From an uncultured archaeon (GTDB lineage: Archaea; Iainarchaeota; Iainarchaeia; Iainarchaeales; CSSED10-239): 16,987 nucleotides of DNA. The notes under the pieces were generated by a model. That model was not told where the DNA came from and did no database searches. It saw only the letters and a program-made list of their open reading frames with translations. Position numbers and translations under genes: made by a program. Position 1 is the first letter of the stretch. The number at the start of each line of letters is the position of its first letter. The DNA lies in NCBI GenBank assembly GCA_964463155.1, contig CAYXAY010000014.1, positions 1 through 16,987 on the forward strand, written 5' to 3'. Below, piece by piece: positions 300 to 14,467 of this stretch.

Positions 300-1328
300 C
301 TAGTCTGTGATTCCGTTCTCTGTGACTTGGTAGACCGCTTCACCGTCTGGTAGGCTTGGAGAGTCTACAAGTTTTGCTATTCTTTTAGAACCAGAACTTT
401 TCCTTAAATAGATTCTTGTCTTTGATGCGTGTTTAACAATGTTTCCACCAATAGCATCTGTTGGATCACCAAACAAAACATCTGGTCTTGACATTACTTG
501 GTTTGTAACAAAGACAACGGCGTTATAAAGTTCCGCAACCTTTTGTAAAGTTCTCATATGTCCATTAAGCTTTTGCTGTCTATCTGACAATTGCCCTCTT
601 CCTACAAATTCTGAACGAAATTGGCTTGTTAATGAATCAACAATAACTAGCTTAATGTTCTTCTCTTTAATAACTTCTTGTGCCTTGTCTGCAAGAAGCA
701 TTTGGTGATTGCTATTGTAGGCTCTTGCAACATAAATATTTTTCATAACCTTTTCTGGGTCCATCCCTCTAAATTTAGCGATTTGAGCAATTCTTTCTGG
801 TCTAAAGGAATTTTCTGTGTCAATATAAAGAACTCCGCCGTCAAGGCCCCCTTTGTCTTTTGGTAATTGGGCGAGAACGCAAAGTTGGAAGCACCACTGG
901 GATTTACCAGAAGCAAACATACCATAAACTTCTGTTATTGACTGGCTTTCAATTCCTCCGCCAAGTAGTTCATCAAGCTCTTTTGAACCAGTTGTTAGTC
1001 TTGCTATTGTCTTTCTTCGGTCCAATATTTTTTCTGCTGTTTCAAAGCCCATATCTAGTGAATCTCTTGCGGCTTTAATTGCTTTAATTGCAGTTCCTTC
1101 GCCAATACCAGCAACAGTCACTAATTCGCTTGGAGAAGCTACAGCTATTGCTTCTAAAGAATCATAACCTGCAGATAAAAGTTTTTCAGCTGAAGCAGGG
1201 CCAATTCCTGGAAGGTCAGTAATAGACATATTCTTTCCAGTATTCCCGCTTACTTCTTCAAGATTTTCAGAACAATCTTCATTATCAAACTCTAAAGTCA
1301 TTTCTTCTTCCTTTTTTCCCTTCTTCAT
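300..1328 (-). CDS. radA: DNA repair and recombination protein RadA (archaeal RecA/Rad51-family recombinase)
   Basis: 342-aa ORF. N-terminal helix-hairpin-helix region ([18 protein letters not shown]...[18 protein letters not shown]). Walker [10 protein letters not shown] fits GxxxxGK[ST]. Walker B-like [16 protein letters not shown]. The HhH domain argues for RadA rather than the shorter RadB. An acidic N-terminal extension of about 35 aa precedes the HhH. Confidence 0.93.
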
Positions 1329-3420: not shown

Positions 3421-3427
3421 GATTAAG

Positions 3428-3498
3428 AGCCTTGGCAGAGAGTCGAACTCTGTTCTTTCACTCTGCAGGCGAATGCATAACCGGTCTGCCACCAAGGC
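3428..3498 (-). tRNA. tRNA-Cys (anticodon GCA), CCA not encoded
   Basis: The reverse complement folds by hand into a 71-nt cloverleaf. Acceptor stem is GCCTTGG/CCAAGGC. D arm is GCAG-ACCGGTT-ATGC. Anticodon arm is TTCGC-CTGCAGA-GTGAA, giving U33 and anticodon GCA. Variable loop is AGAA. T arm is CAGAG-TTCGACT-CTCTG. The discriminator is U73, the known Cys identity element. The segment is GC-rich relative to its flanks. Confidence 0.9.
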
Positions 3499-3579: not shown

Positions 3580-4761
3580 ATGAGAATTGCAATTATTAGT
3601 GATTGGCATCTTGGAGTTGATTTTGATTCTGAACTTGGGAAGGATTCCTTTACTAATCTTTATTCTGCGTTTAAGCAGCTTGAAAAACAAGATATTGATC
3701 TTTTGCTAGTACCTGGAGACCTTTTTGATGTTCCTGTTCCAAGCCATGAGGTGCTTTTTGAGACAATTTCAATTTTAAATGATTTAAATTTAAAAAATAA
3801 GTTTTCAGAAATTTCTGGAAAGCTTCCAATCTTAGCAATCATTGGAAACCACGAGTATCGCTCAAAGGACTATGTTACAACTGTTGAACTTTTGGAGTCC
3901 CTTGGCTTTTTAAAACTTTTAAAGGCTGATTGCTTGAAGTTTGAAAAAGAAAAGGTTGCGGTTTTTGGAATGACTGGGCTTCCCGAAAAATATGCTAAAG
4001 ATTATCTTCTTGAAAAGTTTAATCCAAAGCCATTAAGCGGGCATTATAATATCTTGATGATACATCAATCAATTGTTGAATATCTTCCATTTGAAGACGA
4101 GATGGTTGCTACAATTTCTTTAAGCGACCTTCCAAGTGGTTTTGATTTAATAATCAATGGTCATCTACACTGGGCAAGCGTTGTTGATCTTCCTAAAGGG
4201 GAAAAGTTTCTTCTTCCTGGCTCAACAGTAACTACACAAATTAAACAAAAAGAAACAGAAAAAGAAAAAGGTTATTTTATTCTTGATACAGACAAGAAAT
4301 CTATGGATTTCTTTGAAATAAAAGATATAAGAAAAAGCCATTATATTGATTTGAAGTTTTCTAAAAAACCAATTTCTGAAATTATTTTACAAATAAAAGA
4401 AAGGCTTGAAAAGTTAGAGAAAACCCCTAAAAAAAAAGCGCTTGTAAGAATTAGGCTTAAAGGAGAACTAGAGGTTGGAGAGATTTTAAAAAACCTTGAT
4501 ATCAATTCTATCAAAAAGGAATACTCTGATTCTTTTTTTATTTCAATTAAAAATGACATTTCTGAAAAGAAACTAAAAGAAAGCATAGAGCAGCTAAAAA
4601 AACTGCAAACAGACAACAAAAACATAACTGAACTTGCAAAATCAATTTTTTTGGAACAGATAGAACAGACAAAAGTTTCAAAAGACTTTGAGTATAGGCG
4701 AATCTATGAGCTTTTGGAGAACGGCGATGTGGAAAAGGCAAAAGAACTTTTAAAAACATAA
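3580..4761 (+). CDS. mre11: Mre11-type DNA double-strand-break repair nuclease (calcineurin-like metallophosphoesterase)
   Basis: 393-aa ORF with the ordered phosphoesterase motifs ISDWHLG (DxH), GDLFD (GDxxD), GNHE, MIHQS (H) and GHLH. The C-terminal half is a charged, probably helical region. Confidence 0.82.
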   Translation: MRIAIISDWHLGVDFDSELGKDSFTNLYSAFKQLEKQDIDLLLVPGDLFDVPVPSHEVLFETISILNDLNLKNKFSEISGKLPILAIIGNHEYRSKDYVTTVELLESLGFLKLLKADCLKFEKEKVAVFGMTGLPEKYAKDYLLEKFNPKPLSGHYNILMIHQSIVEYLPFEDEMVATISLSDLPSGFDLIINGHLHWASVVDLPKGEKFLLPGSTVTTQIKQKETEKEKGYFILDTDKKSMDFFEIKDIRKSHYIDLKFSKKPISEIILQIKERLEKLEKTPKKKALVRIRLKGELEVGEILKNLDINSIKKEYSDSFFISIKNDISEKKLKESIEQLKKLQTDNKNITELAKSIFLEQIEQTKVSKDFEYRRIYELLENGDVEKAKELLKT

Positions 4762-4800: not shown

Positions 4801-5106
4801 ATGAAATGCGTATCATATGACTTCTTCTCTGTAATTGGAAATAGACTTAGATGGAATATTGTTAAAAAACTTTATAAGTCAGAGATGACTGTAACTGCGC
4901 TTTGCCTTGCTCTTGAGGAAGAACAATCCAAGATTAGTCATAGCCTAAGGGTCTTACTTGATTGTAATATTGTTTTTTCCAAAAGGTCTGGAAAAAATAT
5001 CATTTATTCCATTAACAAGAAAACAATAAGGCCACTTGTTAAGATTGTTAACCAGCACACAAAGGACTTTTGCAAAAAATGCCATAAAAAAGAGGACCAG
5101 AAATGA
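4801..5106 (+). CDS. ArsR/SmtB-family winged-helix transcriptional regulator
   Basis: 101-aa ORF. LRWNIVKKLYKSEMTVTALCLALEEEQSKISHSLRVLLDCNIVFSKRSGKNIIYSIN matches the ArsR HTH plus wing pattern (R..IL..L....v.eL...l...qs.vShHL..L...g.v...r.G....Y.l). The C-terminus has CKKCH (CxxC). The stop overlaps the next gene's start (ATGA at 5103-5106). Confidence 0.8.
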   Translation: MKCVSYDFFSVIGNRLRWNIVKKLYKSEMTVTALCLALEEEQSKISHSLRVLLDCNIVFSKRSGKNIIYSINKKTIRPLVKIVNQHTKDFCKKCHKKEDQK

Positions 5107-6266
5107 AAAAAACAATCTATCTTGATAATGCTGCAACAACAAAGATGCATTATTCTGTAAAGGAAGTAATGGCAGAAGCTGAAGAAAAATGGTTTGGTAA
5201 TTCCTCTAGTCTTCATAAAATTGGAAGGGACTCTAAGGATGAACTTGACAAGGCTAGAGAAAAGATTTTAAAAAAAGTCAATTCAAAGAACCACAAACTA
5301 ATCTTTACTTCTGGGGGAACCGAAAGCAATAATTTTGCTATTAAGGGTCTTGCTGAAGCTAACAAAACCAAGAAACACATAATAACAACAAAGATAGAAC
5401 ATGATTCTGTTATTAACACTACTAAGTTTTTAGAAAAGCAAGGATATCAAGTAACTTATCTTGATGTTGATAAGTTTGGTTTTGTTAAGATTGATGGGCT
5501 TGTTAAAGCATTAAAAAAAGAAACATTATTGGTGTCAGTAATACAAGGAAACAATGAGATTGGAACTATACAAAATATTAAAGAGATTTCAAAGATTGTT
5601 CGTGACAACGGAAGCCTTTTGCATGTTGACGCCTGCCAAAGCTTTACAAAGATTCCAATTGACATTGAAAAAGAAAATATTGATCTTTTAACAATTAACG
5701 CTCATAAGATTTATGGACCAAAAGGTGTTGGGGGTCTTTTTATAAGAGAAGAAATTAGATTTGAACCATTGCTTCTTGGCGGAGGACACGAATATAAACT
5801 TAGAAGCGGAACCGTTAATGTTCCTGGAATAGTGGGGTTTTCTAAGTCTACAGAGGTTATTGGTGAAAAAGAAATAGAACACATGACAACTCGTAGAAAC
5901 CAACTAGTTAATGGTCTAAAAAATATTGAAGACTCTTGGCTAAATGGCCCTGGTCTTGATTCTGGAAAAAGACTTTGCAATAATGCAAATATTTCGTTTA
6001 TGTATGCTGAAGGAGAAGCTATTCTTCTTTATCTTGATGCTCTTGGAATTTCTGTTTCAACTGGTTCTGCCTGTTCTTCAAATACCCTTGAACCAAGCCA
6101 TGTTCTAAAGGCCATTGGCTTAAAGCAAGAACAGACGCACGGAACTGTTAGGCTTTCTGTTGGAATTGATAACACTAAAGAAGAAATTAAATTTGTTGTT
6201 GATTCTGTTAAAAATGTTGTTGAAAGATTGCGAAAAATAAATCCATATAAATACAAGGGGAAATAA
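5103..6266 (+). CDS. iscS: Cysteine desulfurase (NifS/IscS class, PLP-dependent)
   Basis: 387-aa ORF. N-terminus IYLDNAATT, then FTSGGTESNN. PLP-lysine motif INAHKIYGPKGVGGLF. Active-site cysteine loop STGSACSS. AGAGGA SD-like tract about 8 nt upstream. Confidence 0.92.
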   Translation: MKKTIYLDNAATTKMHYSVKEVMAEAEEKWFGNSSSLHKIGRDSKDELDKAREKILKKVNSKNHKLIFTSGGTESNNFAIKGLAEANKTKKHIITTKIEHDSVINTTKFLEKQGYQVTYLDVDKFGFVKIDGLVKALKKETLLVSVIQGNNEIGTIQNIKEISKIVRDNGSLLHVDACQSFTKIPIDIEKENIDLLTINAHKIYGPKGVGGLFIREEIRFEPLLLGGGHEYKLRSGTVNVPGIVGFSKSTEVIGEKEIEHMTTRRNQLVNGLKNIEDSWLNGPGLDSGKRLCNNANISFMYAEGEAILLYLDALGISVSTGSACSSNTLEPSHVLKAIGLKQEQTHGTVRLSVGIDNTKEEIKFVVDSVKNVVERLRKINPYKYKGK

Positions 6267-6268
6267 TT

Positions 6269-6721
6269 ATGGAAAAATATTCAAAAAAAGTTATGGAAAA
6301 CTTTATGAAACCAAAGAATATGGGCGAAATAAGAAACGCAGACGGTGTTGGAAAAGTGGGCAACCCTTCCTGTGGTGACATTCTTTGGTTATACATTAAG
6401 GTTTCAAAAAACAAGCAAGGTAAAGAAATAATTAAAGACATAAAGTTTAAGACTCTTGGTTGTGCTGCCGCAATTGCAACATCTTCAATGATAACAGAAC
6501 TTGCAAAAGGAAAGGCACTTGAAGACGCTTTTAATATTACAACGGCAGATGTTGCTGCTTCTCTTGATGGTCTTCCGCCAATCAAGATGCATTGCTCAAA
6601 TCTTGCTTCAGATTGTCTTAAAGCAGCAATAAATAATTATTATTCCAAACAAGGAAAGAAAACAAATATAAAGAAATCCACTCATTGTTGTTCTAATAAG
6701 AAGTGTAGTCATAAAAAATAA
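6269..6721 (+). CDS. iscU: IscU/NifU-N-type Fe-S cluster scaffold protein with a Cys/His-rich C-terminal tail
   Basis: 150-aa ORF with the three scaffold cysteine motifs GNPSCGD, LGCAAAIATSS and MHCSNLASDCLKAAI. An extra tail STHCCSNKKCSHKK follows. The gene starts 2 nt after the desulfurase stop. Confidence 0.9.
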   Translation: MEKYSKKVMENFMKPKNMGEIRNADGVGKVGNPSCGDILWLYIKVSKNKQGKEIIKDIKFKTLGCAAAIATSSMITELAKGKALEDAFNITTADVAASLDGLPPIKMHCSNLASDCLKAAINNYYSKQGKKTNIKKSTHCCSNKKCSHKK

Positions 6722-7287: not shown

Positions 7288-7962
7288 TTATTTCTTTTTT
7301 TTATGTTTTCGGATAATAAATATTGCTAATATAATTAACAATGCAATTAGCGAAATCCCTAGGATCCAATAATATTTTTTGTTCATGTTATTTGAAGGAA
7401 TCGGTCTTGTATTGTTTAGGTAGGGTTTTTCTTCAATGGTTTCATTTGCATATGTGTAAATTACTTTTATTTTTGTGAAAGTTGATTCAGCATCTGAAAA
7501 ATTTGGAAGACTCATAACATCCACTACTTTTGTTAGCGAGTCGCTTTCTTTAACATCTCCTGGTGGTTTAAAATCTATTTCTTTACAAGAGAACTCTTTT
7601 GAATTTTTTATTACTTCTATTGCTGAAATATCAAAATTGATTTGGTCGATATTAGCTTGGTTAAATATAAATTGATTTAATATACTGGAATTTTCTTTTT
7701 TTGTAGAACAAACTTTAAAATTACAAAATTTATACATGCTATAACAACCATCTGGATTTGTCATTTGGTAAATATCATTCATTGCTGTGTCGCAAACTGC
7801 AAAAAAATCGTAATCTGGATATTCTGACAAATTATCAAATTTGATACAATAACTTACTCGTTTATATCCTTCCCTTATGCTGTCGGCAAAATGATTTGGA
7901 ATATATAAGCTAAACAATACAAAAACCACTAACGCAAAAATTATTTTTTTATACATAAACAT
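7288..7962 (-). CDS. Predicted surface protein with an N-terminal signal/anchor, a Cys-containing ectodomain, and a C-terminal TM anchor with a poly-Lys tail
   Basis: 224-aa ORF. N-terminal hydrophobic segment KKIIFALVVFVLFSLYIPNHFADS. Six Cys and several N-x-S/T sequons (NLS, NSS, NFS, NET, NNT) in the middle. C-terminal YYWILGISLIALLIILAIFIIRKHKKKK. No PGF-CTERM-type sorting motif is visible. Confidence 0.7.
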   Translation of the reverse strand: MFMYKKIIFALVVFVLFSLYIPNHFADSIREGYKRVSYCIKFDNLSEYPDYDFFAVCDTAMNDIYQMTNPDGCYSMYKFCNFKVCSTKKENSSILNQFIFNQANIDQINFDISAIEVIKNSKEFSCKEIDFKPPGDVKESDSLTKVVDVMSLPNFSDAESTFTKIKVIYTYANETIEEKPYLNNTRPIPSNNMNKKYYWILGISLIALLIILAIFIIRKHKKKK

Positions 7963-8013
7963 ATTAAGAACTGTCCCTTTTTTAAAAGATGTGTTTTTAT
8001 AAGGTTTTTACCA

Positions 8014-9345
8014 TTATTTTAGATATTTCAAAATATCAGATAATTCGGAAGGGTCTCTAAAACAAAGGACCTTTCTTTTTTCAAAATTCTCTAGTTGCCT
8101 TTCAGTCTTCTTTCCGCCAATTGTAACTATCATTATTGGTTTTTTGGTTTTTGCTTTTAGTTTTGCAATCTTTTCTGGAATCTTATTTGATATGCTTGCA
8201 ATCTGTAACAGCATTAAGACAGATATTGAAGAAATATTTTTGTCTTCTAACAAACACTCTATAACTTTGACAAACCGCTCATCATCTGCATCCCCAGTCA
8301 AGTCTGTGGGATTGCCAACAGAGGCATAGATTGGAACTATTTTTTTTATTTTTTCTTTGGTTGTCTTTTGCATTTCTGCTAGATTTATCTTTTGTAAACT
8401 TAGCTTGTCTGTTGTTAATACTCCAAAGCCCCCACCATTTGTTATGATTTGGGTGTTTTTTATTTTTGAAACATTGTACCAAGAATAGAATTTTGCAAGA
8501 TTAAACATTTCTTTAATTGTTTTTACTTCTTTTGCTTCTGCTTGAAGAACCGCTGCAGAAAATATTTTTGAGGCTCCTGCAATTGCTGCTGTGTGGCTTC
8601 TAACAGCCGTTGTTCCGTTATCTGTTACCCCCCCTTTAATAACAATTACTTTCTTTTTCGGTGAAACTTTTTTTATGGTTTCAAAAAATCTTTTGCCGTT
8701 TGCTATTCCTTCGACATAGCAAAGTATTATGTCTGTTTCTTTATCTTTTTCTAGATGTTTTAAAAGATCGCATTCATCAATATCTATAGCATTACCATAA
8801 GAAACAAACCTATTTATTTCTAGTTGTTCTTTGCTTGCAAGGTCAAGTATGGCAAGCCCTAGTGCCCCTGATTGAGTAATTATTGAAACTCTTCCTTTCT
8901 TTGGTAAATCATATTTTTCTCTTGCATTAAATGTTAAATCTAGATTATTGTTAAAATCCATTATTCCAAGACAATTTGGTCCGATAAGGTTGATTTTTTC
9001 TTTGTCTATTATTTTTTTTATTTCTCTTGTTATATCTGAAAACCCAGAAGTTATCATCAAAACATTTTTTATTTTCTTTTTTGCAATCTCTTTTATTACA
9101 GGTAAAGATACTGTTGCTGGAACTGCAACTACTGCAAGGTCTATTGGATCAGTTATGTCAAGCACTGAAGAAAATACTTTTTTTGATAGAAGTTTTTTGT
9201 CTGCCAATCTTGGATTGATAAAAAATACTTTTCCGTTGTAGTGGCTTGCGTTTTTAGCTATTGTGTTGCCTATGCTTCCGTTCTTATCAGAAGCTCCAAT
9301 AATTGCTACGCTTTTTGGTTTAAAGAAATTATCTAAATTTTTCAA
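8014..9345 (-). CDS. acdA: Acetate--CoA ligase (ADP-forming) alpha subunit / CoA-binding succinyl-CoA-synthetase-like protein
   Basis: 443-aa ORF. The N-terminal CoA-binding Rossmann motif FFKPKSVAIIGASDKNGSIG matches lf.PkSvAviGAS. It also has LIGPNCLGIM, IITQSGALGLAILD and a phosphohistidine-like loop RSHTAAIAGA (compare SHTGsLAG). The only in-frame start after the upstream stop is TTG at 9343-9345. Confidence 0.85.
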   Translation of the reverse strand: MKNLDNFFKPKSVAIIGASDKNGSIGNTIAKNASHYNGKVFFINPRLADKKLLSKKVFSSVLDITDPIDLAVVAVPATVSLPVIKEIAKKKIKNVLMITSGFSDITREIKKIIDKEKINLIGPNCLGIMDFNNNLDLTFNAREKYDLPKKGRVSIITQSGALGLAILDLASKEQLEINRFVSYGNAIDIDECDLLKHLEKDKETDIILCYVEGIANGKRFFETIKKVSPKKKVIVIKGGVTDNGTTAVRSHTAAIAGASKIFSAAVLQAEAKEVKTIKEMFNLAKFYSWYNVSKIKNTQIITNGGGFGVLTTDKLSLQKINLAEMQKTTKEKIKKIVPIYASVGNPTDLTGDADDERFVKVIECLLEDKNISSISVLMLLQIASISNKIPEKIAKLKAKTKKPIMIVTIGGKKTERQLENFEKRKVLCFRDPSELSDILKYLK

Positions 9346-9436: not shown

Positions 9437-9979
9437 ATGGCTGAAAACTTTGAAATTATTGTTTATGGGAGAGGGGGGCTTGGAGCTAAGACTTGCGCAC
9501 AAGTAATTGCTGAAGCTGCATTACTTTCTAGAAAAGAAATACAGGCTTTTCCTGAGTATGGACCTGAAAGAAGGGGGGTTCCTGTTAGGGCGTTTGTTAG
9601 AGTTTCTGATAAGCCTATAAGGACAAGTTCAACAATCACAAAACCTGATTTTATTATAGTTATTGATTCTGGTCTGTTTTCGGTGATTACAGAATTAAAC
9701 AGCTACACTTGTCCAATAATTGTTAATACTACAAAGGACAAAAAAGAATTTAATATTAAAAGCAAAGAACTTTACGTGATTGATGCGACAAAAATATCAA
9801 TGGATAATCTTAAATCAAATAATCCAAATATGGTTTTGATAGGTGTTCTTCTTAAACTAACAAATATTATTAAGTTTGAAGATGTAAAAAAGGTAATTGA
9901 AGAAGAATTTACAAAGAAAAATAAAAAAGAAATGATTGAACCTAACCTTGTTTGTCTAAAGGCAGGGATGAAAAAGTGA
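9437..9979 (+). CDS. porG: Pyruvate:ferredoxin oxidoreductase gamma subunit
   Basis: 180-aa ORF. IIVYGRGGLGAKTCAQVIAEAA matches the GrGGqG...a..ila motif of the POR/KOR gamma family, and FPEYGPERRGVPVRAFVRVSDKPI matches s.yg.E.RGap. It is the first gene of the por cluster. Confidence 0.88.
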   Translation: MAENFEIIVYGRGGLGAKTCAQVIAEAALLSRKEIQAFPEYGPERRGVPVRAFVRVSDKPIRTSSTITKPDFIIVIDSGLFSVITELNSYTCPIIVNTTKDKKEFNIKSKELYVIDATKISMDNLKSNNPNMVLIGVLLKLTNIIKFEDVKKVIEEEFTKKNKKEMIEPNLVCLKAGMKK

Positions 9980-9985
9980 TAATTT

Positions 9986-10258
9986 ATGGCTGAAAGAAAA
10001 ATTGCAGGAATCTTAGATAAAGGAACCTCTGTTGTTAATAAGACCGGAAGTTGGAGAGATGTCAAGCCAGAATGGGATTCTAAGAAATGTATACAATGTC
10101 TTATTTGTTATACAACTTGTCCAGAGAACTGTATCTTGCTAGTCAAAGACAAGCAAGAGAATCCTAAAAGAGACAAGACAAATCTTGATTACTGTAAAGG
10201 TTGTGGGATTTGTGCTAATGTATGCCCTGTAAAATGTATAAAGATGGTAAAAGAATGA
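9986..10258 (+). CDS. porD: Pyruvate:ferredoxin oxidoreductase delta subunit (2x[4Fe-4S] ferredoxin-like)
   Basis: 90-aa ORF with two CxxCxxCxxxCP motifs (CIQCLICYTTCP and CKGCGICANVCP) and the typical TGSWR lead-in. It lies immediately after porG. Confidence 0.9.
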   Translation: MAERKIAGILDKGTSVVNKTGSWRDVKPEWDSKKCIQCLICYTTCPENCILLVKDKQENPKRDKTNLDYCKGCGICANVCPVKCIKMVKE

Positions 10259-10833
10259 CAGATATATTTGAAGATATAGAAAAGATTGAGACAATAATTA
10301 AAGTCAAGGAAAGCCAAAGGTTTGGAATAGTTGGTGATAGGCTTGAAAGCTCTGCTGAACACACTTTTAGCTGTATTCTTTTGGCACAATATTTTATTAA
10401 AAAAATTCCATATAAGCTTGACGAATTGACAGTAATCAAATTATTGAGCTATCATGATATTCAAAATGTCTTTTTCAAAGACATCAATCTTAACACATCT
10501 GATTGGAAACAGAAAAAGGACTTAGAGAAAGAAGCCTTTAAAAAAACAATAAAAAATCTTCCAAACGCTATTGTTGGAGACTATGAAAAATATTACTTGG
10601 AATTTGAAGAGCTAAAGACTACAGAAAGCAGATTTGCAAAAGCCATTGATGTCTTGGAGCCAATTATTCATGCATATAACAAGAAGGAACATTGGAAAAA
10701 CGGCAAATGGACTGAACTGGATTTAAGAAAACATAAAGAAAAATATTTAATAGAATTTCCAATACTTCTAAAATTTTTAAATGACTTTATTGATTTTGCA
10801 AACAAGAATGATTATTTTATAAGGAAGAGATAA
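10255..10833 (+). CDS. HD-domain metal-dependent phosphohydrolase, YfbR-like (HD_3) 5'-nucleotidase family
   Basis: SSAEHTFSCILLAQYF resembles nvAEHS..vA. LSYHDIQNVFFKDI is an HD..x..GD-like motif, and AKAIDVLEPI resembles the distal metal-ligand Asp motif aDkle. I chose the ATG at 10255-10257, which overlaps the porD stop (ATGA) and gives MTDIFEDIEK. The six-frame ORF opens earlier at 10222. Confidence 0.8.
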   Translation: MTDIFEDIEKIETIIKVKESQRFGIVGDRLESSAEHTFSCILLAQYFIKKIPYKLDELTVIKLLSYHDIQNVFFKDINLNTSDWKQKKDLEKEAFKKTIKNLPNAIVGDYEKYYLEFEELKTTESRFAKAIDVLEPIIHAYNKKEHWKNGKWTELDLRKHKEKYLIEFPILLKFLNDFIDFANKNDYFIRKR

Positions 10834-10834
10834 A

Positions 10835-11998
10835 ATGAATAAAATAGCATTGACTGGTGGCGAAGCAATCGCTTACGCTTTTAAGCAAATAAATATTGGT
10901 GTGTTTTCAATGTATCCTATTACGCCGCAAACACCAATCATTGAGACATTTTCAAGATTTGTAGCTAATGGGGAGGTGGATACTGAAATTATCAGAGCTG
11001 AGTCTGAACATTCTGCGCTTTCGGCAACAATTGGAGCTAGCGCTTCTGGAGCAAGAGCAGTAACTGCGACCGCCTCTCAAGGTCTTCTTTATATGTTTGA
11101 GATGCTTTCTATTGCTTCTGGTTTACGCCTTCCTATTGTTATGCCTGTAGCAAACAGAGCAATATCTGCACCAATTAATATACATTGTGATCATAGTGAC
11201 TCTATGTCTGCACTTGACCAAGGATGGATGCAAATATATTGTGAGAATGCCCAAGAAGCATATGAGATGACTATCTTCTCTCAGAAGCTTGCAGAGAAAT
11301 CTTATCTTCCAATAATGATTTGTATTGATGGTTTTTTTACAAGCCATAATCTTATATCAGTAAATGTCTTTGAAGATAGAAAGGTAAAAGATTTTGTTGG
11401 AGAATATAAGCCAGCTTATAATCTTTTAGATACTGATAAACCAATAACTGTTGGAGCATTAGCATTACCAGACAGTTATTTTGAAATAAGAAAAGAAATG
11501 TTTGATGCTTTTAGAGAAGTCAAGAATAATTATCTATCTATTGCTAAGGATTTTAAGAAAAGCTTTGGAAAAGACATAAATTTTTATGAGGACTATTTTG
11601 CAAGCATTTCTGAAACAGTAATAATTGTTCTAAGCTCAACAGCACAGAACACTAAAAATGTTGTTGATAAACTAAGAGAGCAAAAGATTAATGTCGGGTT
11701 ATTAAGACCAATACTTTATAGGCCTTTCTTATATGAAGAATATATTAAACCATTAAGCAAAGCAAAAAACATTATTGTTCTTGAGAGAAGCGAAGGCGCT
11801 GGTAGTTTTTCTGCTGTATACAAGGATATTGTTCTAACAATATTTAATCATTGTAAGACAAAAGAAAAACCAAATATCTATAATTATGTTTTTGGGTTAG
11901 GTGGCAGGGAAATTACTGAAAAACAAATAGAAGAACTGCTGGTTTCTGTTCATCAAGGAAAAGCAATTAGTAAAAGATATGTTGGGTTAGAAAAATGA
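10835..11998 (+). CDS. porA: Pyruvate:ferredoxin oxidoreductase alpha subunit
   Basis: 387-aa ORF. LTGGEAIAYAFKQINIGVFSMYPITPQTPIIE and AESEHSALSATIGASASGARAVTATASQGLLYMFE match the conserved POR alpha N-terminal domain (G.eA.a.ga......v.a.YPITPst.i.e ... ESEhsA.s...GAs.aGaR..TaTSsqGl.lM.E). AGGAAGAG SD-like tract upstream. Confidence 0.92.
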   Translation: MNKIALTGGEAIAYAFKQINIGVFSMYPITPQTPIIETFSRFVANGEVDTEIIRAESEHSALSATIGASASGARAVTATASQGLLYMFEMLSIASGLRLPIVMPVANRAISAPINIHCDHSDSMSALDQGWMQIYCENAQEAYEMTIFSQKLAEKSYLPIMICIDGFFTSHNLISVNVFEDRKVKDFVGEYKPAYNLLDTDKPITVGALALPDSYFEIRKEMFDAFREVKNNYLSIAKDFKKSFGKDINFYEDYFASISETVIIVLSSTAQNTKNVVDKLREQKINVGLLRPILYRPFLYEEYIKPLSKAKNIIVLERSEGAGSFSAVYKDIVLTIFNHCKTKEKPNIYNYVFGLGGREITEKQIEELLVSVHQGKAISKRYVGLEK

Positions 11999-12801
11999 GT
12001 ATCAAATATAGAATTAAAACAGCAGTTAATAAAATCTTTAAACGAAAGAATAAGATAAATACAATTAAAGAACTAAACGAATATGTTAGAGAGAAAAAAA
12101 TAATCGGCCAAGCAGAAATTAAAAAACTATATTTAGAACTTTTAGAAAATAGGGGATTTTTACAACATTATACAAATTTGAAATTTTTAGCAAGAGAAGC
12201 AGTAATCACTGAAATGTTTGTGAACAGATTAAGAAGACAAACAAGTCGTCCAATCGTGGTTTTAGGGATATCGCGCACAGGGGTGCCATACACCTGGTCT
12301 ATTAAGCCAACAAGGGGTTTGGTTGTTGATAAATTGTATTATCCCTCATCATATATTGAAGAAAAACTTGTGGATGTTCAAAAAAAAGTTCTAGCTAAAT
12401 TAAAAAAATATAGACGAATAAGACCTTTGTTTGTTTTTGTAGATGCCTCGTCTTCACAAAGAATGCCTTCATCTTTTGTTGGAAGTAACTACTATCATTT
12501 TATTAATGAAAAACAATCACTAAACACTCTTTTAAAAGCAAATGGCTATAAGACAAAAGTGATTGGTTATGATTGGAGTATGAAGGACTCAAGTAAATAT
12601 CTTCCAAAAGATATTGCTCTAGAAAAACTAAATGCAATACTTTTTAATCCAAGCAAGCGTTCGCAACCAAGAGAATTTCTAGGAGAGAAAAAAGAATATT
12701 CTTCAGCTCCACATGATGACAAAACTGACTATATCTATAGTGAATTTTTTGAAGAATTGGTAAAGGATTTGTGTGCTAAAGAAAAACGGAGATATTCATG
12801 A
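11995..12801 (+). CDS. Hypothetical protein, paralog 1 of a tandem pair inserted between porA and porB (possible divergent phosphoribosyltransferase-like fold, speculative)
   Basis: 268-aa ORF. Its ATG overlaps the porA stop (ATGA, 11995-11998). Conserved blocks are shared with the next gene: ITEMFVNRLRRQTSRPIVVLGISRTGVPYTWSI, PLFVFVDASSSQRMPSSFVGS, and KTKVIGYDWSMKDSSKYLPKDIALEKLNAILFNPSK. I recognise no known family with confidence. Confidence 0.85.
   Translation: MSIKYRIKTAVNKIFKRKNKINTIKELNEYVREKKIIGQAEIKKLYLELLENRGFLQHYTNLKFLAREAVITEMFVNRLRRQTSRPIVVLGISRTGVPYTWSIKPTRGLVVDKLYYPSSYIEEKLVDVQKKVLAKLKKYRRIRPLFVFVDASSSQRMPSSFVGSNYYHFINEKQSLNTLLKANGYKTKVIGYDWSMKDSSKYLPKDIALEKLNAILFNPSKRSQPREFLGEKKEYSSAPHDDKTDYIYSEFFEELVKDLCAKEKRRYS
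12568..12656 (+). repeat. Copy 1 of an 89-nt perfect direct repeat shared by the tandem paralogs
   Basis: tatgattggagtatgaaggactcaagtaaatatcttccaaaagatattgctctagaaaaactaaatgcaatactttttaatccaagcaa is identical base for base at 12568-12656 and 13302-13390 (offset 734 nt). I checked this by hand. Confidence 0.97.
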
Positions 12802-13535
12802 GAAGAAGCAAAAGGGTTGAAACACCAAATCAAAAAATAAAAAAAATAATGCCTATCTATAGATATTACTTGCGATTAGCTCATCCACTGCCAAAACTGA
12901 AATATTTGGCGAAAGAAGTTCTAATAACTGAATTGTTTGTGAATAGATTAAGAAGACAAACAACGCGCCCAATTGTGGTAATAGGAATAGAAAGAACAGG
13001 AGTGCCATACACTTGGTCTATTACTCCAGATAATAAAAGAGTGTTTTTAGATTCTTTAGTTTATAGTTCAACAAAGATACACACTACTGTATTTGCACAA
13101 AAAACCAACTTGCTTAGAAAGATTGGAGAATATAGAAAAGAGCTGAGAGATCCTTTGTTTGTTTTTGTAGATGCGTCATCATCTGCAAGAATGCCTTCGT
13201 CTTTTGTTGGATCGCCAGAATTAAACGGACCATATAAACTCCGAAAAGATTGCATGGAAACTGTTCTTAATCAAAATAATCTTAAAACAAAAGTGGTTGG
13301 GTATGATTGGAGTATGAAGGACTCAAGTAAATATCTTCCAAAAGATATTGCTCTAGAAAAACTAAATGCAATACTTTTTAATCCAAGCAAAGAGCGAAAA
13401 ATAAAATATAAGTTTGAAGGAGAAAAGATAGAATATTCCTCTGCGATACACGATGATAAATGTTCGTTAATGGACTCTCTTGAATTTAAAGAAACAGTAT
13501 TAGATATTGTTAAATATTATAAAAGAAATTTGTGA
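12798..13535 (+). CDS. Hypothetical protein, paralog 2 of the tandem pair inserted between porA and porB
   Basis: 245-aa ORF. Its ATG overlaps the paralog-1 stop (ATGA, 12798-12801), with a GGAG SD-like tract about 8 nt upstream. It shares the same conserved blocks (ITELFVNRLRRQTTRPIVVIGIERTGVPYTWSI, PLFVFVDASSSARMPSSFVGS, KTKVVGYDWSMKDSSKYLPKDIALEKLNAILFNPSK). The N- and C-termini are divergent. Confidence 0.85.
   Translation: MRRSKRVETPNQKIKKIMPIYRYYLRLAHPLPKLKYLAKEVLITELFVNRLRRQTTRPIVVIGIERTGVPYTWSITPDNKRVFLDSLVYSSTKIHTTVFAQKTNLLRKIGEYRKELRDPLFVFVDASSSARMPSSFVGSPELNGPYKLRKDCMETVLNQNNLKTKVVGYDWSMKDSSKYLPKDIALEKLNAILFNPSKERKIKYKFEGEKIEYSSAIHDDKCSLMDSLEFKETVLDIVKYYKRNL
13302..13390 (+). repeat. 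Copy 2 of the 89-nt perfect direct repeat shared by the tandem paralogs
   Basis: Same 89-nt string as 12568-12656. Flanking sequence drops to scattered identity within a few nucleotides on the 3' side and within about 20 nt on the 5' side. Confidence 0.97.
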
Positions 13536-14467
13536 TAAATATGGACATAAAAGAACTAGCTAAAAAAATTAATGAGAAAAACACAATGGTTAGTGGGCAT
13601 CGAACTTGTGTTGGATGTCCAATTGGAGTAATCTGCAGAACCGTTGCTTCTGCTAGCGATAAACCGGTTGTTGCTGTTAGCGCTACATCTTGTGCAGAAG
13701 TTACAACTACTGTTTATCCTCAGACATCTTGGAATATTCCATGGATACATTCTGCGTTTGCTAATGCGGCTGCAACAATTTCAGGAGTTGAATCCGCATA
13801 TAAGGCACAAAAGAAAAAAGGAAAAATAAAAAAAGACATTAATTTTTTAGTTATTGCTGGGGACGGCGGAAGTTTTGACATAGGTTTACAAAGTTTGTCT
13901 GGTGCTCTTGAAAGAGGACATGATTTCGTATTTTTGTGTTATGATAACGAAGGTTATATGAATACTAATAACCAACGTTCATCAGCAACGCCAAGAGGAG
14001 CAATAACAACAACTACCCCTGCTGGAAAAAATTCTTTTGGAAAAGTTGAGTTTAGTAAAGATCTTGTTAAAATTGCAACCGCTCACAATATCCCTTATGT
14101 TGCTCAAGCAAATACTAGTAACTTAATTGATCTTTATAACAAAGCAAAAAAAGCATTTGAAAAGAAAGGTCCAGCAGTGCTTGTTGTGTTTGCGGCTTGT
14201 CCAACAAACATGAAGGCAGAGTCTTCAAAAACAATTGAAATTAGTAAACTTGCAACAGAAAGTAATTTCTGGCCACTTTATGAAATTGAAGATGGGAAAT
14301 TAACTCTCAATTACAAGCCAAGCAAAAGAATAGCAATAGAAGAATTTCTAAAAGCCCAGAGCAAATTCAAAGAAGTACTAAAACCAAAAAACAATGGTGT
14401 TTTAAAAACAATTCAAGAAGAAGTAGATAGAAGATATAATGAATTATTAAAACTTGAAAAAATATGA
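13532..14467 (+). CDS. porB: Pyruvate:ferredoxin oxidoreductase beta subunit (TPP- and [4Fe-4S]-binding)
   Basis: 311-aa ORF. It has GHRTCVGCP, SATSCAEV and FAACPTNM cluster cysteines. The TPP motif is IAGDGGSFDIGLQSLSGALERGHDFVFLCYDNEGYMNTNNQRSSATPRGAITTTTPAGK. The start is either GTG at 13532, overlapping the upstream stop (GTGA), or ATG at 13541. Confidence 0.92.
   Translation: MINMDIKELAKKINEKNTMVSGHRTCVGCPIGVICRTVASASDKPVVAVSATSCAEVTTTVYPQTSWNIPWIHSAFANAAATISGVESAYKAQKKKGKIKKDINFLVIAGDGGSFDIGLQSLSGALERGHDFVFLCYDNEGYMNTNNQRSSATPRGAITTTTPAGKNSFGKVEFSKDLVKIATAHNIPYVAQANTSNLIDLYNKAKKAFEKKGPAVLVVFAACPTNMKAESSKTIEISKLATESNFWPLYEIEDGKLTLNYKPSKRIAIEEFLKAQSKFKEVLKPKNNGVLKTIQEEVDRRYNELLKLEKI

Follow-up and report, generated by a model that had tools for sequence, protein, structure and literature searches.

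The window analyzed here, a stretch of 16,987 nucleotides (nt) of DNA from an uncultured archaeon, contains an operon for pyruvate:ferredoxin oxidoreductase (POR), and two tandem paralogs of an orphan protein family, parA and parB, are located between the porA and porB genes of this operon (Table 1). Each of the two paralogs carries, within its own reading frame and in the same codon register, one copy of an 89-nt tract, and direct sequence comparison of the two copies showed identity at 89 of 89 bases. The origin of this identity is the subject of the present report. The genes around the tract are tightly packed, with 4-nt ATGA start/stop overlaps at both the porA/parA and the parA/parB junctions (the latter at 12798–12801), and this layout suggests that porA, parA, and parB are co-transcribed and that their translation is coupled.

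An 89-nt tract shared by two diverged genes

The tract is the longest exact match between parA and parB, and a repeat finder placed its two copies 734 nt apart, start to start. At the 5′ end, it is bounded by a mismatch at positions 12567/13301, which is itself synonymous (GGT versus GGG, both encoding Gly). At the 3′ end, the exact match stops at 12657/13391, and this edge is also the point at which parA and parB can no longer be aligned, with an indel followed by unrelated residues. In the 18 nt immediately upstream of the tract, 15 positions are identical between the copies. No second repeat of comparable length is present within the window, and the 89-mer was not found in the 20 related loci that were searched. 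An earlier interpretation of this DNA, made from the letters alone (the sequence-only reading), had claimed that the two copies are identical at every base including the synonymous positions, and this was confirmed in the codon-aligned comparison, in which there are zero synonymous differences.

Outside the tract, the two genes are strongly diverged. The encoded proteins are identical at 134 of 239 aligned residues (56%; 59% by BLASTP), and the DNA is identical at 376 of 627 positions (60%), in agreement with the moderate similarity of the paralogs that had been claimed from the sequence alone. The genome has a GC content of 32.6%, and expected numbers of codon matches were computed from the codon usage of the window itself under the assumption of saturated synonymous sites. 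Outside the tract, 61 of the 101 identical degenerate residues use the same codon, and 48.2 matches would be expected if the silent sites were saturated; the silent sites of the pair are therefore near saturation, although not fully saturated. Within the tract, the same codon is used at 27 of 28 such residues (13.3 expected), which corresponds to a joint probability of ∼10^-9.5. A permutation of silent sites, which is conservative in that the matches of the tract itself were left in the pool, produced a run of at least 27 in 58 of 200,000 trials. When nucleotide matches were permuted instead, a run of 89 was reached in none of 20,000 trials, and the longest run obtained was 36.

The same picture emerged from codon-aware estimates of divergence. 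Outside the tract, the Nei–Gojobori method gave a proportion of synonymous differences (pS) of 0.535, a synonymous divergence (dS) of 0.94, and a non-synonymous divergence (dN) of 0.50, whereas the 16.3 synonymous sites and the 70.7 non-synonymous sites of the tract are free of differences. In sliding windows of 30 codons, pS drops to 0.06 at the tract alone, where the window is centered on it, and ranges from 0.37 to 0.74 elsewhere, so the sliding-window comparison that the sequence-only reading had proposed bears out the pattern it described. By a divergence-based measure of conversion (of the GENECONV type), the contrast is likewise clear, with 0 differences in 89 nt of tract against a pS of 0.535 outside it.

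The sequence-only reading had singled out a further, shorter stretch that covers an FVFVDA motif in both genes. This 23-nt match is indeed exact. However, its run of silent-site matches is 9, which has a probability of 0.32, and the encoded peptide, PLFVFVDA, is the motif with the highest conservation in the family. The stretch is thus explained by a conserved motif together with codon bias, adds no significant signal of conversion beyond them, and was ruled out as the remnant of an older conversion on account of the silent-site probability.

Table 1. Coordinates of the genes and sequence features of the window
Feature	Position	Strand	Description
parA	11995–12801	+	268 residues; upstream tandem paralog of the orphan family; from the list of open reading frames (ORFs)
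parB	12798–13535	+	245 residues; downstream tandem paralog; from the ORF list
Tract copy 1	12568–12656	+	parA codons 192–221 (YDWSMKDSSKYLPKDIALEKLNAILFNPSK); exact identity, dS = 0, permutation tests
Tract copy 2	13302–13390	+	parB codons 169–198; exact identity, dS = 0, permutation tests
23-nt exact stretch	12424–12446	+	Encodes PLFVFVDA; in parA; partner at 13152–13174
Partner of 23-nt stretch	13152–13174	+	In parB
porG	9437–9979		por operon of the window
porD	9986–10258		por operon of the window
HD-domain gene	10222–10833		Inside the por operon of the window
porA (POR alpha subunit)	10835–11998	+	Upstream flank of the pair; Pfam POR_N and PFOR_II
porB (POR beta subunit, thiamine pyrophosphate (TPP)-binding)	13541–14467	+	Downstream flank of the pair; Pfam TPP_enzyme_C
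ADP-forming acetyl-CoA synthetase-like gene	8014–9345	-	Adjoins the por operon
tRNA-Cys(GCA), RadA, Mre11-like, ArsR-type, desulfurase/NifU group	3427–3498 (-), 300–1328 (-), 3580–4761 (+), 5103–6721 (+)		

The orphan family and the segment that contains the tract

ParA and ParB belong to a small family. A protein search among 5.8 billion clusters returned 11 members, and an exhaustive profile search among 1.84 billion proteins returned 36 representatives. The two proteins had no match, by sequence or by profile, in Pfam (searched with the single sequences and with all 11 members at E-values up to 5), NCBIfam, PHROGs, PADLOC, or PDB. In the protein, exhaustive profile, and genome and metagenome locus searches, their closest homologs are at most 42% identical. 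Checks for a viral or mobile origin gave no relative in IMG/VR contigs and revealed no compositional anomaly. In a neighbor-joining tree, parA and parB are sisters on long branches, whether the tract columns are masked or not, and their nearest outgroups are P0003 and P0022, the latter being the single copy of the related contig L011 (related contigs and loci carry L numbers here). Judging from the tree and the aligned sequences, the pair appears to have arisen by a lineage-specific duplication and to have strongly diverged since.

An AlphaFold model of the protein core has an alpha/beta architecture with a predicted local distance difference test score (pLDDT) of 83 and a predicted TM-score of 0.84; a full-length model was also made. 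The N-terminal region of the family is variable and basic and is modeled as long helices that precede the core. Foldseek comparison of the models with PDB and BFVD gave no match below an E-value of 0.01 (the best was ∼0.02), and the TM-scores were mostly below 0.4, with the highest at 0.45. Weak matches to SIS, HGPRT/phosphoribosyltransferase, and HDAC-like structures reflect generic alpha/beta folds and were not counted as evidence. The invariant residues of the family include R78, Y99, D150, S152, N218, H240, D241, and K264 (parA numbering), several of which follow sheet strands in the model. From these predicted features, the family is enzyme-like or ligand-binding in appearance. The tract itself corresponds in the model to the end of a strand, a low-confidence loop (pLDDT below 50 for residues 196–201), a short helix, and the next strand.

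In related archaeal contigs, family members are usually found inside por operons, either between porA and porB (L001, L011, L018) or between porD and porA (L004, L014, L023). The only other tandem pair that we found is in L018, a contig of 977 kb, where it lies between porA and porB as it does in the window and comprises copies from different subfamilies. The longest run of identical bases is 19 nt in this pair and 24 nt in the L004 pair, in both cases at positions other than that of the tract. The gene downstream of the L004 family member, a candidate for a diverged paralog, is a TehB-like methyltransferase gene whose product is 18% identical, and it was rejected. The family is not strictly linked to POR, because one member (P0015, 282 residues; L019, 5158–7713) is encoded between a pyrE-like phosphoribosyltransferase gene and the gene for orotidine-5′-phosphate decarboxylase; the distant members P0026 and P0009 are also located outside por operons, in unrelated neighborhoods. 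In L007 (5845–6728), a second family copy several kb downstream of porB appears to be split over two frames (genes of 219 and 77 residues; tblastn pieces at 6046–6450 and 6540–6692), with genes for a DDE transposase and a PemK toxin close by. This copy is probably a frameshifted pseudogene. A protein of 3834 residues, P0035, contains three separate stretches that match profile positions 25–93, the conserved helix region of the N-terminal part (E = 5e-11).

Conservation of the tract segment across the family was examined in 13 aligned genes for which DNA was available, with parA as the reference and 11 genes besides parA and parB. Four blocks were compared: D2 (12173–12309), D3 (12424–12483), the tract, and a block around an HDD motif (12697–12725). 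Residue identity to parA is lowest in the tract segment, at 0.49, compared with 0.60 in D2, 0.68 in D3, and 0.55 in the HDD block, and the indel hotspot of the family falls within the tract segment. Among identical residues, the fraction that use the same codon is 0.52 in the tract segment and 0.46–0.55 in the other blocks, which is the level given by codon bias. Since residue conservation is lowest in the tract segment and its same-codon fraction is ordinary, selection acting across the family on the protein or on the nucleotides does not explain the frozen silent sites. D2 and D3 are more conserved across the family and still have a pS of 0.37–0.52 between parA and parB; the sequence-only reading had argued that purifying selection on the protein would leave silent sites free to vary.

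Probable gene conversion and the alternatives to it

Gene conversion is a well-known and ordinary process. We consider it probable, with good confidence, that the 89-nt tract was created by a single, recent, short-tract gene conversion, that is, by non-reciprocal homologous repair between the tandem paralogs. Recent conversion within the locus had been the leading explanation of the sequence-only reading, and it agrees with the zero synonymous divergence of the tract, with its sharp edges, and with flanks whose silent sites are near saturation. Simple unequal crossing-over, which had been named beside it, fits poorly, as a hybrid gene or a changed copy number would be expected from such an event and not an internal patch. 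The absence of differences over 89 nt limits the divergence of the tract to at most ∼3.3% (95% upper bound), compared with ∼40% (uncorrected) outside, and this would place the event in the latest few percent of the history of the pair.

The sequence of events could have been as follows. The two genes parA and parB would have arisen by tandem duplication within this lineage and would then have diverged until their synonymous sites were near saturation. Much later, a break or a stalled replication fork in one copy may have been mended with the other copy as the template, taken either from the same chromosome, at a distance of 734 nt, or from the sister chromosome. RadA-mediated invasion or template switching, followed by a short tract of synthesis, would have overwritten ∼89 nt, or at most ∼110 nt if the upstream 18 nt with 15 identical positions are counted. 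Genes for RadA and for an Mre11-like nuclease lie in the same window, so recombination machinery is present. Because parA and parB group as sisters whether or not the tract is included, the donor and the recipient would be the two local copies, and either of them could have been the donor; the repair mechanism and the recency of the event are inferred. We propose that the tract has no function of its own and is a footprint of recombination. As had been anticipated from the sequence, the repeats could serve as a substrate for deletion: recombination between the two tracts would result in an in-frame hybrid gene of 269 residues, in which parA residues 1–221 are joined to the C terminus of parB. 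An exact repeat of 89 nt is therefore a hazard, either for mis-assembly or for real deletion to such a hybrid.

Several points weigh against gene conversion. No close relative with an orthologous tandem pair was present in any of the collections that we searched; the nearest homologs are those at or below 42% identity, and they are single-copy or placed differently. The flanks of the tract, at only ∼60% identity, are poor homology for canonical RadA-dependent strand invasion, so a short-homology or template-switch mechanism must be assumed. Graph simplification or polishing in the metagenome assembly could have erased a few real differences within the tract. It is also possible that the two copies have a common, lineage-specific function, given that the pair occurs in a single genome only.

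An artifact of assembly or polishing might have created the perfect identity or even the tandem arrangement. The window is a complete contig of a metagenome-assembled genome, seen in one record only, and exact look-ups of parA and parB found neither protein in any independent assembly. Where repeats are nearly identical, a few of the differences between them can be lost through bubble-popping or short-read polishing. However, the two copies differ at ∼40% of positions outside the tract, and the sequence at the parA/parB junction is unique. If the assembly were chimeric or had collapsed through the sole shared sequence, one hybrid gene would be expected and not two complete genes, and the segment between the tract copies must come from a tandem arrangement because the tract flanks it on both sides. 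The independent L018 contig also carries a tandem pair of the family between porA and porB. At most, an artifact could have turned near-identity into identity, and conversion would still be needed, so we regard this explanation as very unlikely. Selection for sameness is another alternative: a variable surface loop and its flanking strands may be kept the same in both paralogs by repeated conversions that became fixed, a form of concerted evolution below the level of the gene, for example because both proteins bind a common ligand or a common partner such as POR. The tract does span the indel-prone, least conserved block of the family, and in the model this region is the low-confidence loop between two sheet strands (residues 196–201); variable regions of this kind could set specificity. 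Long-lasting concerted evolution of complex-forming proteins is known in prokaryotes (PMC6053082). Against this, the pair is present in one genome only and recurrence cannot be demonstrated from it, zero differences fit a single recent event equally well, and the tandem pair of L018 lacks a homogenized loop. On balance, selected homogenization appears unlikely.

The sequence-only reading had suggested a constraint at the nucleotide level, such as an embedded RNA element, a regulatory site, or a ribosome-pausing signal. An element of this kind, including a structured or antisense RNA, an internal promoter or other regulatory site, or a translational pause, might be embedded in both coding sequences and freeze their silent sites, and 27 consecutive degenerate codons are indeed fully frozen. 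Folding of the 89-mer on both strands, which had been put forward as a check, revealed nothing unusual. Compared with 200 dinucleotide shuffles, the z-score is -1.14 for the plus strand and -1.77 for the minus strand, and the latter folds slightly better than shuffled sequences, 10 of 200 being as good. A scan of the whole window against Rfam 15 at E-values up to 1 gave no match in 11995–13535, no promoter- or terminator-like site was detected in the tract by a scan that does not cover archaeal promoters, and the only antisense small ORFs that overlap the tract are short ones with TTG or GTG starts. Silent sites of the segment vary across the family to an ordinary degree, none of the 20 related loci searched contains the 89-mer, and the other paralog pairs found within one genome share runs of at most 24 nt. 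Moreover, the residues too are 100% identical in an otherwise variable segment, which a constraint on RNA does not require. The embedded element thus found no support, and we judge it highly improbable. The remaining explanation is chance, acting together with protein-level purifying selection and a strongly AT-biased codon usage. At a GC content of 32.6%, two independent draws share the codon at ∼48% of identical residues, and this suffices for the 23-nt stretch. For the tract, however, the probability is ∼10^-9.5 under saturated codon usage and 3 × 10^-4 by the conservative permutation, and the more strongly conserved D2 and D3 blocks diverge at silent sites as described above. We therefore attach a negligible probability to chance.

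Setting in the por operon and comparison with known systems

The window is archaeal and has genes for RadA (Rad51 family plus HhH), an Mre11-like metallophosphoesterase, and topoisomerase VI subunit A. It also contains tRNA-Cys(GCA), an ArsR-type regulator, and a pair formed by cysteine desulfurase and a NifU-like scaffold protein. The mechanically called ORF of porB begins at a GTG codon at 13532, while homologs align from the ATG at 13541 (tblastn, from ORF residue 3–4), and a uracil/xanthine-type permease gene follows porB. The synteny of acd, por, and top6A in the window is also present in relatives.

In this archaeal lineage, the accessory genes that interrupt the four-subunit por operon (porG-porD-porA-porB) differ from genome to genome (window, 9437–14467; L001, L004, L011, L014, L018, L023). 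These include the HD-domain gene of the window, copies of the orphan family, a TehB-like methyltransferase gene, and genes for orphan proteins of 194/199 residues, as well as Methyltransf_23 genes between porG and porD, two of which stand in tandem in L014. The 194/199-residue orphan beside the family copies in L004 and L023 was considered as a homolog of the HD-domain protein of the window and rejected. Start and stop codons of the accessory genes often overlap those of their neighbors, and the gene content varies even between close relatives. Compared with the closely related L018, L014 has the TehB-like methyltransferase gene (7936–8673) as an insertion immediately behind porA. A direct duplication of ∼37–42 nt (7922–7958 and 8663–8704; the L018 equivalent is 4890–4931) borders the inserted gene on both sides, and the duplicated unit comprises the porA stop codon, a spacer, and the first nine codons (MPxIIKKP) of the orphan-family gene. 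The L014 family gene has also lost ∼286 nt, which left the truncated copy P0028. The same methyltransferase gene, with 90% nucleotide identity, is located at a different por junction in L004 (6768–7485). The pattern resembles the movement of a cassette by short-homology recombination. In addition, an intein that includes a LAGLIDADG homing-endonuclease domain is present in porB of L001 (5717–7762), L007 (1117–3156), and L011 (6814–8862). The intein-bearing proteins have 679–682 residues compared with the usual ∼310, and the porB product of the window (311 residues) is without an intein.

Cassette turnover is thus a feature of these por operons. A broader and rather doubtful interpretation is that the por operon of a low-GC archaeal lineage harbors a cassette region that is unusually active in recombination, and that the 89-nt patch is one of its footprints. 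In this region, orphan genes, among them the present family and two kinds of methyltransferase genes, would be inserted, duplicated, truncated, and patched between the subunit genes by short-homology recombination. If this were true, the orphan family would represent a novel factor associated with POR or, alternatively, a selfish gene of a new type that resides in the operon, and selection could hold the shared loop identical. The context, in which a rare orphan family is repeatedly found in an essential metabolic operon with a rapid turnover of accessory genes among related genomes, may be worth more than the tract itself. As a case of gene conversion, the tract is a statistically solid and clean example, from an uncultured archaeon, of a short patch transferred between tandem paralogs that are highly diverged, and conversion at only ∼60% flank identity bears on how much homology archaeal recombination requires.

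Interlocus (ectopic) gene conversion and concerted evolution are known for paralogs of both bacteria and archaea (PMC6053082). The examples include tufA/tufB in bacteria and mtrA, the methylamine methyltransferase genes mtmB/mtmC, and histone genes in methanogenic archaea (PMC6053082); euryarchaeal chaperonins are a further example (Archibald and Roger 2002, as cited in PMC6053082). As in these cases, two paralogs of the same genome share a segment that is homogenized at silent and replacement sites, and it was detected as a run of identity far beyond the background divergence. In contrast to the whole-gene and long-lasting homogenization of known concerted evolution, only one 89-nt patch is involved here, in genes that are nearly saturated. 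Unlike the known cases, parA and parB belong to an orphan family of unassigned role and have unusually low flanking homology (∼60%), and any recurrence or selection is hypothetical for them. A cis-acting RNA or regulatory element within a coding sequence would likewise appear as a discrete stretch of frozen silent sites. The tract differs from such elements in that it lacks significant structure, an Rfam match, and silent-site conservation in homologs, and its freeze exists only between two copies in one genome.

Tandem paralog clusters are also known to recombine, an example being the tandem lipoprotein cluster of Staphylococcus aureus (PMC2568036). The similarity among its paralogs is described as a mosaic that does not follow ORF boundaries, which is the aspect shared with parA/parB, and the conserved unit of the cluster runs from the 3′ end of one ORF across the spacer into the 5′ end of the following ORF (PMC2568036). 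By contrast, the parA/parB patch lies inside each of the two ORFs, and the gene junction is unique sequence. The event is thus a new instance of an already known kind, and it is distinguished by the single short patch, by the very diverged genes in which it occurs, and by the orphan family to which they belong.

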